The notes: generated by a model from the sequence alone, not told the origin. 64,000 nt of DNA from Euglena gracilis (GCA_039621445.1 CP154954.1:19516642-19580641), one strand, 5' to 3'; positions 10,868-64,000 are shown, numbered from the stretch's first letter. Program-made: numbers and translations.

Positions 10868-13800
10868 GTACGGCTGTGTTCACGCCCCTCCCGCATCCGG
10901 CGTTCACAGCTTCAAAAAGGCCGGTTTGCTCTCGGGAAGCACACCAGAGTGGGAGTGCACCCGCTTGGGCAGGGCAGAACGGGAAACCGCCTCGCGGCCA
11001 GGGTGGTGGGTGGGGGGTCGACCCCCCCCCCGCACCCCCTGCATGGTGGGGGGGGTCGACCCCCCCCCACCCCCTGCATGGTGGGGGGGGTCGACCCCCC
11101 CCCCACCCACCTCTGCCCGTTGTTCTGGTGGCACCAATTTTTGGACCCCAAAAATTTTTCCCGGTGCCTTCGGCGCCGGGTGTTTTTTTTTTGCCCCATT
11201 TTGGGACCCATACACAAAGTCCCCCCAAAACCCCCCAAAACCCCATTTTTTTCACACCTTCCAAAATATCAATATTTTCTCAAAATTTTGATTTTGAGCG
11301 GTTTTTGATGCAAAAAATGCCATTGAAAATCAAAAAAATTTTCCAAGAGAAAAATATCAGTAAAATTGGACTGTGCCAAAATTTTGTTCATTTTTTTTGA
11401 GCTTCGTTTTTTTTTTTTTACCCTCTCCAAAAAACTACCAATTTTTAACCTGAAAATTTTGAGATTCTTTTTATGAAAAATGTGGTTTTCCATCAAAAAA
11501 TCATGTATTTTGGGTTCGTTTTTCAAAAAAAAATTCAAAAAATTTCCCCAACCAACATCCCCGTTGGCCGAAATTGGTGAAAATGCTGTGGTGGGTGGGG
11601 GGGGTTGACCCACCCCCCCACCTCCCGGGTGAGGGGGGTCGACCCCCCCCACCAGGCCTTCCCGTTCTGCCCTGCGCTTGGGGCAACACAATGCACGCCG
11701 CACGAAAGAGTGGTAGTTGGTCTCGGGAAACCTCGGAAGGCTGAGTATTAATGAGCGGGTCACTGGGTAAAGAGTAACCCCCCCCCACTTTACTGCTGTG
11801 ATGCCGGGAACTGCTGGAAACTACCGAGAACCTCCCAGCCTGCTGACCTGTCAGGTCTCAGTTACTTCTGAGAGGGGTCAAAAACAAATGAAGTCGAACA
11901 GGCGGGGGTTGGTGTGGTGGGTGCTCGCGTTGGCGGTTTGCTTGTGTGGCAAGCGTGTGTACACAGCCAGACGTGCAATGCAGGTGAATTTCTTTTGTTT
12001 GAGGTGCATATCATGATTCGTCTGAATAATGATTGAGTCTGTTTTAGGCGACACCAAAATTTGTGTGTGTGTGTGTGTGTGTGTGTGTGTGTGTGTGTCT
12101 GTGTGTGTGTGTGACTGACAGAGGGACCTTGGGGCGGAAAGGTGGGGCCAGTGCCAGGGCGGGTGGGAGAGGTTGGCTATGGCCGGACTGGCGGTCAAGC
12201 CGCCGCTTGTGAATGCTTGCAGAGGCCCTGGGGGGATTGGGAAGGGGGTGGGGGCGGTGGCGCTGTGCAGACCTTACCAGACCCCCCTAAGGCCAAAGTT
12301 TGTTTGTTTGCAGCCGGGGGGGGGGGGGAATTGATCAAAGGTAAAATTGGTTCGGACAAAATTGGTTGGCCAAAAAAAGCCAAAAATATTTCTGGACCCT
12401 TTTGAGGATTTCGACCAATTTTTTTCATCGTTTACAGAGCGTTCTGCCTGCCATCCCTCCAAAAAGGTAGGAAGGGTGCCCAAGTATTTCCGGACCGTTT
12501 TAAGAAAACCAATTTTGTCCGAACTTATCTATGACCAATTCCCACCAGTGCCAGAGGGACCCTTCCCAGGATTCCAGCCCTCATTGATGCATTTATTTCC
12601 TGGCCAGCCCCCCCCCTTGGGTGTGCAGAAATGGGTCGAAAAACAATTAATGGTCAAAGTGGCTGTCCAGCTCAAATTTTGGGTCGAAAGTTGGTGTCTG
12701 AAAGATTTTGCTTTCTTGCTAAAACGAAGCACCTTGGGTATTTGACCAGGTTTTGGATAGTGCTCTTAATAAGCGCGCCCCCACCCCTTCATTGACCAGA
12801 TTTTGAATAGTGCTGAGCTCTTAATAAGCGCGCACCCACCCCTTCATTGACCGACCCCTCCATACTACCGGCCCACTCCATGGAGCTCTTTTGCCTGAAA
12901 TCCATGGGTTTTGTGCCAGAAATGGGGGGGCCGGTGGGTCGAAAAACGCTCATTTTCGGCTCAAAAACAGTTTTTCCGGGTCTGGGAGGCCTAAAAACAT
13001 CGTTTCGCGCAAAATTTTTTTTCGAATTTTTTCGACTTTTTTGACACGGTTTTGGCCCGAAGTCAATGGGTCGGCGGCCCAAAAACGGGGCGCTGGCGGG
13101 TCGAAAAACGCTCATTTTCGGCTCAAAAACAGTTTTTCCGGGTCCGGGAGGCCAAAAAAAACATCGTTTCGGGCAAAAAAAATTTTTTCGATTTTTTTTC
13201 GACTTTTTTGACCCGGTTTTGACCCAAAGTCAATGGGTCGGCGGCCCAAAACGGGGCGCTGGCGGGTCGAAAAACGGTCGTCTCAAAAACAGTTTTTCCG
13301 GGTCCGGGAGGCCCAAAAACATCGTTTTGGGCAAAAAATTTTTTTTCGATTTTTTCCGACTTTTTTGACCCGGTTTTGACCCAAAGTCAATGGGTCGGCG
13401 GCCCAAAACGGGGCGCTGGCGGGTCGAAAAACGGTCGTCTCAAAAACAGTTTTTCCGGGTCCGGGAGGCCCAAAAACATCGTTTTGGGCAAAAATTTTTT
13501 TTTCGATTTTTCCGACTTTTTTGACCCGGTTTTGACCCAAAGTCAATGGGTCGGCGGCCCAAAACGGGGCGCTGGCGGGTCGAAAAACGGTCGTTTTCGG
13601 CTCAAAAACAGTTTTTCCGGGTCCGGGAGGCCAAAAATCATCGTTTTGGGCAAAAAAATTTTTTTGATTTTTTTCGACTTTTTTTTGGCCGAAAACGGCT
13701 AAGTCGAACAGTGGAAAAAGTGTACAAAATGGCCTAAAATGGCCTAAATTGGCCGAAAAACGCCCGTATCTCGGGCTACGCGGGGAGTTGTGGGGAAACC

Positions 13801-62600: not shown

Positions 62601-64000
62601 GTCCCGCAACTACAACGAAAAGGTGTCATTGCTGCCTGTGCCGGCCTGTGGCGGCGGAAGAAACCGTGCGGGTTGACTCGTGTGAGATTTGCCTGGTCCT
62701 GCTTTGGTGCCTGCCAGCCATTCCTGCCAGGTGGACATCTTCAGCGTCGGCATCCTCTTCCTGGAGATGCTTGCGGGCTTCGGCACGGAGCATGAGCGGT
62801 GCTTGACGTTGGCTGCGGTGCGGGAGACGGGTCGTGCCACCCCGAGAGAGAGTCTGGCTGACTGGACACCCTTCCTCCCACCTTCACAAATTTTTGATCT
62901 GCAGCATCTCTCAATGAATTGCAGATTGCCCATTTTTTGGCATTGGGGCAAATAAATATAACGTATAGACATACATACAATCAAAGATGATTGTATTAAT
63001 ATGTTTGTATGTCCACATTCATAGGTTGCGTGTGAGTTATTATTTCAAATTTGCGTGCATGCGCACGCACAGGTGTGTGTGTGTGTGTGTGTGTGTGTGT
63101 GGCTACCCTGCACCTCGACCTGTAGTTGTCTCCCACAGCCCGGCGCTCCTCCCGAGTTCTACGCCAAGTGCCCGCGGGAGGCAGAGCTCGTCAACGTCTG
63201 CGTCACCCACTCCCCGGAGCGGCGCTGGAGCGCGCGGCAGCTGTTGGAGAGCGACCGGCTGCCGAAGCCCCCGGCGGAGGACAGCGCCATTCGCCAGGTG
63301 GTGGACACCGTCGCCCAGGGCGGGCTGGTGTATGGCGGCTGCCCCGTGGTCCGGTGAGGTCAGCGGCCTCACGGGGCCGCTGACCTCGCGTACCAGCCCG
63401 TGCGTACGTGAGGTCGCGTGCGCACCTCGCGTGCGGCGAGGTGCGCAGGTGTGAGCATGCGTGTGCACTCACGCACGCGTGCGCACTCACGCACGCGTGC
63501 TGACGCACGTGTACACGTACGTGAGCACGTACGTGTACACGCACGTGCTCACGTACGTGTATGTGACCACCAACAGCTCCGGGTGACCCTTGCAATTGGG
63601 ACAAGAAATGGTGGGGGACCATGATATGGGGAAAACATTTCGAATCATTTTTTTTTCCCGGACGGTACCTGGTACCGGACTGCCTGCTGCTGCTCCCGGC
63701 AGCGCCGAATCCCCTGTCCTGCCGTCCCCCACCTCTAAACTCAGAACGTATCTGTGATCACGCCACCGCTGCCCCAGCGGATCCCGTCAGTGGAAAGCAA
63801 AGGCAGCAAACCCCCAGCTAACGACCCCCGCCCCACAGCCAGTCACCTCCCCCCCCCCAACTCTGGAACCACCCCACCTCCCCAATTCTGCGGAGGCGTT
63901 TTCTCACCGCACCACTCGGATGCCCGTGGCCCCGTCCCCCATCCAAAGGCCGCCCTGCCCCCACCAGCGACCGCGCCTCCCCCCACTTCCAGCGGTTGCT
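37627..64000 (+). CDS. GCN2: GCN2-type eIF2-alpha kinase (zinc finger + RWD + kinase), 3' end outside window
   Basis: RWD ([20 protein letters not shown]) followed by [59 protein letters not shown], acidic insert, [52 protein letters not shown]. The HisRS-like domain is not visible in the window. Confidence 0.9.
39390..41860 (+). CDS. GCN2: GCN2 RWD exons: 39390-39513, 39970-40030, 41051-41136, 41740-41860
   Basis: [99 protein letters not shown]..; frame is restored when the stem-ended introns are removed. Confidence 0.88.
40482..40922. mobile_element. CAG...CTG MITE
   Basis: [14 protein letters not shown] ... GTTTCCCCTG; flanks GTGTGGA / GTGTGGG (7-bp imperfect repeat). Confidence 0.7.
42176..46557 (+). 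CDS. GCN2: GCN2 linker exons: 42176-about 42221, about 42601-42681, 42874-43067, 43292-about 43440, about 43860-43925, 46449-46557
   Basis: [15 protein letters not shown] / [36 protein letters not shown]..poly-[19 protein letters not shown] / [58 protein letters not shown]; two junctions unresolved. Confidence 0.75.
44088..45152. mobile_element. TA-flanked MITE containing a nested hAT-like MITE (about 44443-45077)
   Basis: TA|AACCCTCCCCTGAATAGAAGCCCC ... GGGGCTTCTATT..TATTCCGGGGGGTT|TA; inner element ends CGGGGCAGAACGGGAA ... TTCCCGTTCTGCCCTG. Confidence 0.75.
45155..46255. repeat. (TATATG)n and (TATG)n microsatellites
   Basis: Direct inspection. Other long simple repeats: (TA)n 19501-19592, (CA)n 20795-20910, (GT)/(GGTGTG)n 27058-27642, (GCAC)n 33650-33850, (GTGTG)n 50462-50580, (TATATG)n 57700-58105. 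Confidence 0.97.
46956..47814. mobile_element. hAT-like MITE (with probable nested insert)
   Basis: TIR CAGGGTTGTATG ... CACACAACCCTG; exact 8-bp TSD CCCCGGGG (46948-46955, 47815-47822). Confidence 0.88.
50093..57070 (+). CDS. GCN2: GCN2 kinase exons to the HRD loop: 50093-50236, 52285-52352, 53979-54072, 54321-54371, 54540-54680, 55544-55685, 56052-56126, 56979-57070
   Basis: Joins rebuild [67 protein letters not shown]. Confidence 0.9.
50581..51833. mobile_element. TIR element with subterminal GTGGACACCAAAA repeats and nested inserts
   Basis: GACATTCATTTAGTGTGGTACAC vs reverse complement of right end GACATTCATTTAGTGTGGTTCAC. Confidence 0.8.
52820..53322. mobile_element. hAT-like MITE
   Basis: TIR CAGGGGTTTTCTTAAG ... 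CTTAAGAAAACCCCTG; exact 8-bp TSD GTTGGATC (52812-52819, 53323-53330). Confidence 0.93.
53595..53940 (+). mobile_element. Degenerate Ty3/gypsy LTR retrotransposon pol fragment (RT thumb/connection region)
   Basis: [51 protein letters not shown] resembles the gypsy pattern FLGxxNYYxxFIPxFAxxAxPL..AFxxLKxxL..PDxxKPFxL. Confidence 0.8.
58105..61410. repeat. Array of about 8 palindromic units with telomere-like TTAGGG/TTAGGC arms, in mixed orientation, separated by hairpins and (ATATAC)n
   Basis: Unit TGCGTTAATGATGGARTAGGGTTAGGTGCGCGASTTAGGCTTAGGGTTAGGCCTAACTT..AAGTTAGGCCTAACCCTAAGCCTAASTCGCGCACCTAACCCTAYTCCATCATTAACGCA near 58218, 58530, 59020, 59450, 59770, 60278, 60719, 61198. Confidence 0.92.
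61585..64000 (+). CDS. GCN2: GCN2 kinase C-lobe exons: 61585-about 61680, about 62455-62622, 62731-about 62830, about 63126/63139-63312, 63963-window end
   Basis: [128 protein letters not shown]. Confidence 0.88.

Follow-up and report, generated by a model that had tools for sequence, protein, structure and literature searches.

The closest described counterparts of the introns considered here are the nonconventional introns of euglenids (Milanowski et al. 2014, 2016; Nomura et al. 2025; Mob DNA 2024 review), with which they have in common the N3-CAG...CTG-N5 arrangement, paired ends, direct junction repeats and a suspected transposon origin. A knock-in study reports the code 5'-N3-CDG...CH'G-N5-6/R, in which N6 is tolerated and a purine is required at the downstream exon start (PMC12501133). 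According to the same study, five natural introns were spliced when placed in a foreign exon, and synthetic introns of 50 bp in which 12 bases were paired sufficed for splicing. By our own arithmetic on its numbers, E. agilis nonconventional introns without junction repeats make up 87,843 of 466,382 (18.8%), against a chance expectation of about 50% (PMC12501133). In gapC of E. agilis, a recently gained nonconventional intron that is strain-specific is reported to carry eight-nucleotide direct repeats (PMC4770533). As to origin, Milanowski et al. 2014 state that no euglenid transposon family was known at the time, and Nomura et al. 2025, in a genome-scale account, still call the origin unclear. 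The earlier euglenid texts consulted describe no transposon family, do not tie repeat length to a superfamily and leave a 3+5 rule unstated. What is added here is a group of MITEs with 8-bp duplications beside nonconventional introns, one of which is homologous to one of the MITEs.

Outside the euglenids, the introners of Micromonas and Aureococcus, and other transposon-derived introns, are described as short non-autonomous DNA transposons, bounded by inverted ends and target duplications, whose insertion creates an intron, and their splicing likewise removes the element together with the duplicated bases (PMC11282704). Introners differ in being spliceosomal, in that the element supplies one splice site and a 3-nt duplication is co-opted to give the other (PMC11282704). 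For the window, by which we mean the whole 64,000-nt stretch of Euglena gracilis DNA analysed, we propose instead a non-GT-AG route dependent on paired ends; the cuts would be measured from these ends, and a whole 8-nt duplication copy would therefore be removed whatever its sequence. The noncanonical introns of Amoebophrya and Fritillaria are also non-GT-AG, with inverted ends, duplications and a suspected MITE origin, but their duplications are 3-5 nt long or their ends belong to a different type; a modified spliceosome removes them in Fritillaria, and an altered spliceosome is suspected in Amoebophrya (PMC11282704).

The nonconventional introns of the window lie in a GCN2-like eIF2-alpha kinase gene (Table 1). 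Two of its exons matched Pfam RWD (E 7.5e-4 and 3.3e-3) and two matched Pfam Pkinase, and the top solved-structure matches were GCN2 (E 2.6e-5 and 1.1e-3). GC3 was 0.77-0.98 in 14 of the 17 inferred exon pieces (the others being E7 at 0.69, E14 at 0.60 and E16 at 0.45), as against 0.38-0.69 in the introns. Two GT-AG introns in the same gene indicate that the euglenid system coexists with normal splicing.

Table 1. Features of the window, with pairing of the inverted ends and agreement of the flanking 8-mers (WC, Watson-Crick pairs)
Feature	Position	Strand	Element or ends	Pairing of ends	Flanking 8-mers	Remarks
GCN2-like kinase gene	39389..64000	+				runs past window end; Pfam, structure matches, GC3
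GT-AG intron	55686..56051	+				conventional, pyrimidine tract; kinase gene
GT-AG intron, second	62623-62730	+				conventional; kinase gene
MITE M1 with both duplications	10962..11682	.	10970-11674, 705 bp	16/16 from CAGGGC	CGCTTGGG, 8/8	
MITE M2 with duplications	21198..21862	.	21206-21854, 649 bp	15/15	CTTAACAG, 8/8	
MITE M3 with duplications	22109..22383	.	22117-22375, 259 bp	13/13	CAGCAGAG/CAGTAGAG, 7/8	
MITE M4 with duplications	46948..47822	.	46956-47814, 859 bp	11/12	CCCCGGGG, 8/8	nested in M4o
Outer MITE-like element M4o	46906..47905	.	46914-47897	10/12 from CAGGC	GATGTCGG/GATGTGGG, 7/8	host of M4
MITE M5 with duplications	52812..53330	.	52820-53322, 503 bp	16/16	GTTGGATC, 8/8	
M1b, older second M1-family copy	44443..45077	.	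CGGGG left end		0/8	43.5-50.0 kb stretch of kinase gene
Intron I1	39514..39969	+	N3-CAGGG...CCCTG-N5	11 WC + 2 G-U in 14	6/8	best of 73 candidates; links two RWD-domain pieces; M1-family relative
Intron I3	41137..41739	+	N3-CAGCG...CGCTG-N5	12 WC + 1 G-U in 14	3/8	best of 58 candidates; recovered independently in inverted-end pair scan (11/12)
Intron I6	43068..43291	+	CAGGG...CCCTG		2/8	sole nonconventional candidate among 6; terminal stem in minimum-energy fold
Intron I8	50237..52284	+	CAGGGC...GCCCTG, 2048 nt	11/11	4/8	connects glycine-loop and catalytic-lysine exons
Intron I12	54675..55567	+	CAGGT...GCCTG	10 WC + 1 G-U, run of 9	4/8	
Intron I14	56127..56978	+	CAGAC...GTCTG		1/8	N5 CAG-CTG candidate; connects helix preceding catalytic loop with HRD-motif exon
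Intron I15	57071..61584	+	CAGGGA...TCCCTG, 4514 nt		5/8	top of 13 candidates; contains repeat array; connects preceding exon with DFG-motif exon
Intron I19	63313..63962	+	CAGGGCGG...CCGCCCTG	9/10	5/8	

All five MITEs recorded in the first-pass annotation proved real, with CAGGG...CCCTG ends, inverted ends and 8-bp duplications (8/8 in four, 7/8 in one). Over the first 12 bases of the inverted ends, 11-12 were complementary in M1-M5, with perfect runs of 9-16 bp. The ninth base outward failed to extend the repeat in all five, and the duplication is therefore exactly 8. In the window, 74 CAG...CTG pairs have at least 11 of 12 complementary bases, 54 of them inside a repeat array at 58.1-61.4 kb; among the remaining 20, the flanks agreed at 8/8 in four, at 7/8 in one and at no more than 5/8 in 15. 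Pairs combining inverted ends with a duplication numbered five, compared with none in each of 40 dinucleotide shuffles. When all 931 CAGGG...CCCTG pairs were considered, four had 8/8 flanks and three 7/8, two of these three being G/C runs. At 259-859 bp, with inverted ends and duplications, the elements fit the MITE class, whose members are small, non-coding and present in several copies. Within the window M1 is accompanied by a second copy and a related intron; M2, M3 and M5 are single. The second copy, M1b, is 80% identical to M1 across 622 nt, with the final 34 nt identical; it begins with CGGGG, not CAGGG, and has no duplication. Pieces of M4 also occur at 13967-14072, 15043-15149 and 51461-51555.

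No intact MITE of the window lay within an exon, all five being intronic or in non-coding-looking sequence. M1 is probably intronic, since it lies about 100 nt downstream of a GT donor that closes an FHA-domain exon (exon GC3 55/55). M4 lies in the kinase gene in a stretch without assigned exons (43.5-50.0 kb), bounded on each side by a coding anchor, and M5 within the intron following exon 52285-52352.

Two features define the hAT superfamily, 8-bp duplications and YARNG termini, and listed examples start CAGGGG (PMC3014272). Duplications in the window matched at 8/8 in four elements and at 7/8 in two, M1b being the exception, and the YARNG motif was present as CAGGG at both ends of M1-M5; the CAGGC of M4o does not fit it. 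A weak target consensus is characteristic of hAT elements, with T at position 2 and A at position 7; each occurred in two of the six duplications, a number of sites that carries little weight. The MITEs resemble those of the hAT superfamily in their 8-bp target duplication, YARNG terminus and short inverted ends; no target-site consensus was seen, and their assignment is structural. Judged solely by duplication length and terminus, they are probably non-autonomous elements of hAT type, and the transposase behind them was presumably hAT; none of the 10 ORFs scanned, out of 281 ORFs of at least 100 aa in the window, gave any Pfam match, and no transposase was found among them.

Eight introns of the kinase gene fit N3-CAG...CTG-N5 in silico, their junctions being predicted from restoration of the frame, the inverted ends, the continuity of domains and GC3; we found no transcript-derived protein bearing on their removal. 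They are ordinary members of the euglenid nonconventional class. Five of the eight have the CAGGG...CCCTG ends of the MITEs: CAGGG lies 3 nt downstream of all five starts listed in the first-pass annotation (39514, 43068, 50237, 57071 and 63313), and a CCCTG lies 5 nt upstream of the frame-restoring exon starts (39969, 43291, 52284, 61584 and 63962). The 'most introns' of the first-pass annotation amounts to 8 of 13 positions whose junctions could be assigned at least in part, and six more positions lie outside this count. The pairing after CAG and before CTG that marks this class was seen in all eight, with 8-12 Watson-Crick pairs in the first 14 positions, and all eight downstream exons start with a purine, which was not used for junction choice. 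I19 is the least secure of them because the window end cuts its downstream exon. For the intron that follows 52352 the spacer may be N6; this would remove the element plus 9 and counts against a 3+5 model.

We consider it quite likely that hAT-type MITE insertions become nonconventional introns, excised at -3/+5 without a scar. The arithmetic behind this proposal, already set out in the first-pass annotation, holds: given the published code and an 8-bp duplication, loss of the element plus 8 nt leaves the pre-insertion sequence. A MITE would enter a transcribed exon, in either orientation because CAG...CTG is identical on both strands, giving a pre-mRNA with the order duplication, CAG..., ...CUG, duplication. 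The inverted ends would pair, and nonconventional splicing would recognise the paired CAG:CUG, with one cut 3 nt before the CAG and the other 5 nt past the CUG. The element and 3+5 = 8 nt, equal to one duplication copy, would be removed and the message restored letter for letter; such insertions would therefore be close to neutral and build up as introns. In time the duplication and interior would decay, and only CAG/CTG, some pairing, the spacer lengths and the downstream-exon purine would be kept.

Homology between an intron and a MITE was clear in one case. The 5' ~170 nt and last ~25 nt of I1 align with M1 and M1b, and its 5' end scored 65 against that of M1, a value reached in none of 100 shuffles (null 24.1, sd 3.0). 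This is the single instance of one family present as intron and as non-intron copies. When 16 intron ends were compared with the MITEs of the window, 11 others gave nothing and four gave weak excesses (z 3.2-4.9) that may reflect low-complexity sequence; the other seven introns had no clear relative among the six MITEs of this window.

Duplication remnants were sought in the 8-mers flanking CAG and CTG, which matched at 30 of 64 positions in the eight introns (6 of 19 intron positions, with junctions unassigned, were left out). A permutation null gave a mean of 18.1 (sd 2.9) and a maximum of 27 in 20,000, so that 30 was never reached. With three ambiguous introns included the match was 36 of 88 against a null of 24.8 (P 0.0009), and for eight CAG...CTG pairs drawn at random the probability of reaching 30 is P 0.0003. 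Shift 0 was the highest register, all other shifts from -6 to +6 giving 15-25. These comparisons support the presence in the kinase-gene introns of putative duplication remnants in the register expected of a target duplication. It is improbable, in our view, that 3+5 equals 8 by coincidence and that the flanks are alike through the sequence that the splicing system prefers at each of its two cut sites. The sample of eight introns is small, the spacers are C-rich and a pyrimidine-purine preference is reported at both junctions, but the permutation null retains position-specific preferences and still falls short of the observed match. Moreover, the I1-M1 likeness extends far beyond any splice signal, and the 5-nt MITE terminus recurs in five of eight introns even though mutations adjacent to CAG/CTG are reported to leave splicing unimpaired (PMC12501133).

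We regard as very improbable a second possibility, that introns are made by staggered double-strand-break repair capturing filler DNA, in which case the 8-nt repeats would be a footprint of repair and any likeness to MITEs would be secondary. Break repair was favoured as the source by the discoverers of the repeats in the new gapC intron (PMC4770533), but 8-bp repeats here also flank non-exonic elements with long perfect inverted ends and a common 5-nt terminus, a second family copy exists, and one element is nested in another (46956 within 46914-47897); inverted ends and repeated families are not predicted by that model. Least credible is the reverse direction, in which introns came first and circular excised RNA was copied to DNA and inserted as MITE-like copies: excised introns are described as circles with full-length ends (PMC11282704), and the RNA would bear CAG...CTG plus 8 extra nt, but copies derived from it would include the 3+5 spacer bases within the element and have no exact new-target duplication abutting CAG and CTG, whereas the four perfect duplications differ from one another, each therefore coming from its own target site, and the 8-bp duplication with YARNG terminus is the hAT signature (PMC3014272).

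Conversion of inserted MITEs into introns is thus the reading we retain. The window shows the anatomy of the MITEs, the intron ends, remnants of duplications and a single intron with homology to a MITE family, and the introns appear to have arisen from such insertions. The interpretation offered by the first-pass annotation is supported in part: its arithmetic holds, and the flank remnants, the I1-M1 homology and the published gapC intron favour it; an intact exonic MITE and wider family homology were not found in the window, nor was a transposase among the 10 ORFs scanned. The novelty is narrower than that annotation implied, because a MITE origin of euglenid introns was already in print as a general idea; earlier papers also contain the N3/N5 code and the case of a newly acquired intron bearing 8-nt direct repeats. 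The statement that 3+5 is one 8-bp hAT duplication was not found in the literature searched. A broader proposition, possible but on balance doubtful, is that euglenid nonconventional splicing is an RNA-level excision matched geometrically to one transposon superfamily, all hAT-type MITE insertions, in either orientation and in any exon, being born as scarless introns. This would account for the nonconventional share of Euglena introns, which at about 70% is the majority. We speculate that the 3/5 asymmetry, which corresponds to a 3' overhang of 2 nt across a stacked helix, points to an endonuclease, dimeric or of the double-strand-RNA type, that makes a staggered double cut before the ends are ligated, and not to a spliceosome.

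The proposal offers a concrete, testable origin for the odd introns of euglenids, whose source has been in question since their discovery. If it is true, young introns should have 8-nt repeats abutting CAG and CTG, junction sliding should be limited to -5 to +3, and intergenic relatives of introns should show 8-bp duplications. Scarless splicing is also expected when a reporter exon receives a MITE together with one copy of its duplication, whichever way the element points, and a knock-in assay for this already exists. Euglenid introns would then plainly exemplify a transposon family and a pathway of host RNA processing that are matched to one another, and would represent a second, non-spliceosomal route of genome-scale intron creation.

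All five MITEs that the first-pass annotation had named (M1 to M5) start CAGGG and end CCCTG as it described, and the flanking duplications are complete in four and match at 7/8 positions in the fifth (Table). Duplication length is exactly eight, the ninth base never extending the repeat in any of the five. A scan of the window for such elements returned nine matches, namely M1 to M5, an outer element (M4o) within which M4 is nested as a later arrival, a candidate element of 2.5 kb and two low-complexity matches. CAG...CTG pairs with at least 11/12 complementary bases number 74 in the window, 54 of them within one repeat array; for the 20 pairs outside the array, flank identity was 8/8 in 4, 7/8 in 1 and at most 5 in 15. 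Inverted ends and duplication occurred together in 5 pairs of the real window versus 0 in 40 dinucleotide shuffles, and the MITE set is far beyond chance. The available text of a study of hAT transposons gives 8-bp duplications and YARNG termini as their hallmarks, and several of the ends listed there start CAGGGG (PMC3014272). No hAT transposase for the MITEs was found, with Pfam matches in 0/10 ORFs scanned out of 281 ORFs of at least 100 aa, and a metagenome scan with the conserved 25-nt 3' end of M1 gave no matches. M1b, an older copy of the M1 family, is 80% identical to M1 over 622 nt and its final 34 nt are identical; its left end reads CGGGG, not CAGGG, and its flanks (44435-45085), C8 and AAGGGGGG, match at 0/8 positions and thus show no duplication; a rearrangement, or insertion at a G/C palindrome, may account for this.

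Table. MITEs, introns and other features of the window, by window coordinates (introns with inferred junctions; matches are given as positions)
Feature	Coordinates	Strand	Ends	Flanking duplication
MITE M1	10970-11674		inverted, 16/16	CGCTTGGG, 8/8
MITE M2	21206-21854		inverted, 15/15	CTTAACAG, 8/8
MITE M3	22117-22375		inverted, 13/13	CAGCAGAG/CAGTAGAG, 7/8
MITE M4	46956-47814		inverted, 11/12	CCCCGGGG, 8/8
MITE M5	52820-53322		inverted, 16/16	GTTGGATC, 8/8
Outer element M4o	46914-47897			7/8
Candidate element	23754-26275			7/8
Older copy M1b	44443-45077
Nonconventional intron I1	39514-39969	+	N3-CAG...CTG-N5
Nonconventional intron	41137-41739	+	N3-CAG...CTG-N5
Nonconventional intron I6	43068-43291	+	N3-CAG...CTG-N5
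Nonconventional intron	50237-52284	+	N3-CAG...CTG-N5
Nonconventional intron	54675-55567	+	N3-CAG...CTG-N5
Nonconventional intron	56127-56978	+	N3-CAG...CTG-N5
Nonconventional intron	57071-61584	+	N3-CAG...CTG-N5
Nonconventional intron	63313-63962	+	N3-CAG...CTG-N5
Conventional intron	55686-56051	+	GT-AG
Conventional intron	62623-62730	+	GT-AG
Ambiguous variant			CGG-CCG
Ambiguous variant			CTG-CAG or N6
Ambiguous variant			CGG-CTG
FHA exon	10701-10867	+
Repeat array	57600-61480
43-bp-unit arrays	535-990, 2311-2613, 4451-4999, 7806-8182
317-bp-period satellite	1122-2161
157-bp tandem repeat	12956-13684

The window has a G+C content of ~50% and abundant microsatellites; a tRNA scan found no genes and Rfam no matches in it. 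Four tandem arrays are built from a 43-bp unit with a perfect palindrome in it, and a satellite of 317-bp period lies between the first two. The array that supplies most of the inverted-end pairs lies inside intron 57071-61584, has units every ~1.24 kb and consists of (ATATGT)n-type microsatellites between inverted arms that begin CAGCTCCCCAC and CAGGGAGGGG; flanks there match at 1-4/8 and gave no sign of 8-bp duplications.

A gene for a GCN2-like eIF2-alpha kinase runs on the + strand from ~39.4 kb to the window end. Five of 10 coding pieces had a Pfam match and five had none; RWD was found on two exon pieces (E 7.5e-4 and 3.3e-3) and Pkinase on two, and GCN2 was the top match for two exons in a search of solved structures (E 2.6e-5 and 1.1e-3). 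G+C at the third codon position (GC3) is 0.77-0.98 in 14/17 inferred exon pieces (0.69, 0.60 and 0.45 in the other three) and 0.38-0.69 in the introns. A protein search with the first RWD exon for a transcript-derived product gave no matches; 7-13% of words sampled from 54001-64000 were present in 19 runs guessed, not recorded, to be RNA, and four raw RNA runs stand under the same species label. We set 19 coding anchors by coordinate and examined the 18 gaps between them for frame-restoring introns, either nonconventional (N3, then N4/N5/N6) or GT/GC-AG, ranking candidates by the pairing of their ends. An N3-CAG...CTG-N5 intron was the clear best solution in seven gaps and after the last anchor, two introns are conventional and three are ambiguous variants; the architecture is of the euglenid type. 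The remaining six gaps, omitted from the flank comparison below, gave no clear solution, probably because exons are absent from the anchor set. Some junctions fall within conserved kinase motifs (one joins the glycine loop to the lysine exon, another the pre-catalytic-loop helix to the HRD exon, and a further one leads into the DFG exon), which fixes the number of bases removed. The CAGGG...CCCTG ends previously noted at five intron coordinates are present, in 5/8 of the N3-CAG...CTG-N5 introns. A purine opens the downstream exon in 8/8, a feature not used in choosing the junctions.

The intron after the catalytic-lysine exon (52343-53978, +) has no clean N3-CAG...CTG-N5 form; it can be read as CTG...CAG (52360-53919, 10/14 pairs) or as N3-CAG...CTG-N6 (52353-53978), with hardly any pairing and removal of the element plus 9 nt. 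At 55680-56972 (+), a stretch starting at the last codon (CAG) before GT-AG intron 55686-56051 is complementary at 11/12 positions to a CTG located shortly before the following nonconventional intron ends. By the N3/N5 rule this pair would take out 1293 nt in frame and skip exon 56052-56126; it may be due to chance, with ~5 such pairs per shuffled window.

If the nonconventional introns derive from MITEs, remnants of the duplication should persist beside them, and the comparison of flanking 8-mers bore this out for the eight introns of this one gene: 30/64 positions match between left-of-CAG and right-of-CTG (6, 3, 2, 4, 4, 1, 5 and 5 of 8 per intron). Over 20,000 permutations that paired left flanks with the right flanks of other introns, the number of matches averaged 18.1 (sd 2.9) and never exceeded 27, and random sets of eight CAG...CTG pairs from the same region reached 30 with P 0.0003. 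With the three ambiguous introns included, 36/88 positions match versus 24.8 (P 0.0009). Sliding the right flank from -6 to +6 gave 15-25 matches, against the maximum of 30 at shift 0, the register of a duplication directly abutting the element.

The proposed family likeness between introns and MITEs held for one intron. The first ~170 nt and final ~25 nt of I1 align with the M1 family, with a local alignment score of 65 versus 24.1 (sd 3.0) in shuffles keeping the terminal 5 nt, and I1 is clearly homologous to it. Among the other 15 intron ends, 11 show no excess of similarity to the MITEs and 4 a weak one (z 3.2-4.9), possibly from low complexity. In I6 the terminal stem is present in the minimum-energy fold; the whole-intron fold is no more stable than shuffles (z -1.08) and was dropped as a signal, the terminal stem alone being what matters.

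No intact MITE lies in an exon (0/5 within the window). M5 is within a kinase-gene intron, M4 lies between two kinase-gene coding anchors in a stretch without assigned exons, and two of the five are in A+T-rich sequence of non-coding appearance. M1 lies ~100 nt past the GT donor that closes the FHA-domain exon. We considered M1 as an exonic insertion in this gene and rejected it: GC3 is 55/55 in the exon versus 12/20 and 14/21 around M1, and this drop, together with the GT donor before M1, makes an intronic position more likely. The FHA exon itself has an ATG start and encodes the first part of a Pfam FHA domain (E 0.0077, under the curated cut-off), which we take to resemble the N-terminus of NBS1/nibrin; a T-rich 157-bp tandem repeat with G/C clamps (4.6 copies) lies downstream.

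Nomura et al. 2025 defined by knock-in a splicing code, 5'-N3CDG...CH'GN5-6|R, in which the 5' spacer is obligatorily 3 nt, the 3' spacer has its optimum at 5 and a purine is demanded at the downstream exon start; natural introns keep functioning when placed in a foreign exon, and synthetic introns of 50 bp are enough with 12 paired bases (PMC12501133). The intact MITEs already satisfy this code, with the purine present for 4/5 on the + strand and 4/5 on the - strand, which predicts that M4 and M5, in non-coding stretches of the kinase gene, can be spliced out as nested introns. In the route that we consider most likely, a hAT-type MITE would insert and duplicate 8 bp, its inverted ends would pair in the transcript, and the nonconventional machinery would cut 3 nt upstream of CAG and 5 nt downstream of CUG, removing the element plus one duplication copy and restoring the original message. 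Since the reverse complement of CAG...CTG is again CAG...CTG, either orientation would work. In each of the two copies the cut would separate position 5 from position 6, which would also explain the similar pyrimidine-purine context reported for both junctions in a 2024 review (PMC11282704). As a speculation, the 3/5 stagger could be the 2-nt 3' overhang of a double-strand-RNA-type nuclease.

The general form of this idea is already published: Milanowski et al. 2014 proposed MITE-like elements as an intron source and remarked that at that time no transposon had been described from euglenids (PMC3935182). Milanowski et al. 2016 describe a strain-specific, recently gained nonconventional intron with eight-nucleotide direct repeats in E. 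agilis gapC, repeats which they thought might be the footprint of double-strand-break repair (PMC4770533). The 2024 review calls junction repeats "TSD-like", and the terms 'hAT', '8 bp' and '8 nt' are absent from its accessible text (PMC11282704); Nomura et al. 2025 call the origin of nonconventional introns unclear in theirs (PMC12501133). By our arithmetic on numbers in that text, junction repeats are missing in 87,843/466,382 nonconventional introns (18.8%) versus ~half by chance, taking 'nonslidable' to mean that no one-base shift is possible either way (PMC12501133). In the freely accessible main texts searched, we found no paper that connects hAT or an 8-bp duplication with euglenid introns, or that relates the 3+5 spacers to a single 8-bp hAT duplication; the sliding distances (PMC12501133, Fig. 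1B) and the 8-nt repeat (PMC4770533, Table S3) are directly relevant and lie beyond that scope.

Overall, the observation of MITEs and intron ends is confirmed, and the first-pass interpretation, a hAT-like MITE origin of the introns, is partly supported. The flank remnants and the homology of I1 speak for it; the failure to find a transposase, the lack of an exonic intact MITE in the window and M1b without duplication speak against. This support covers one gene and eight introns with inferred junctions, I1 alone being clearly homologous to a MITE within the window. The specific form, in which hAT-like MITEs generate 8-bp duplications and the 3+5 spacers equal one copy, appears to be new and is readily testable.
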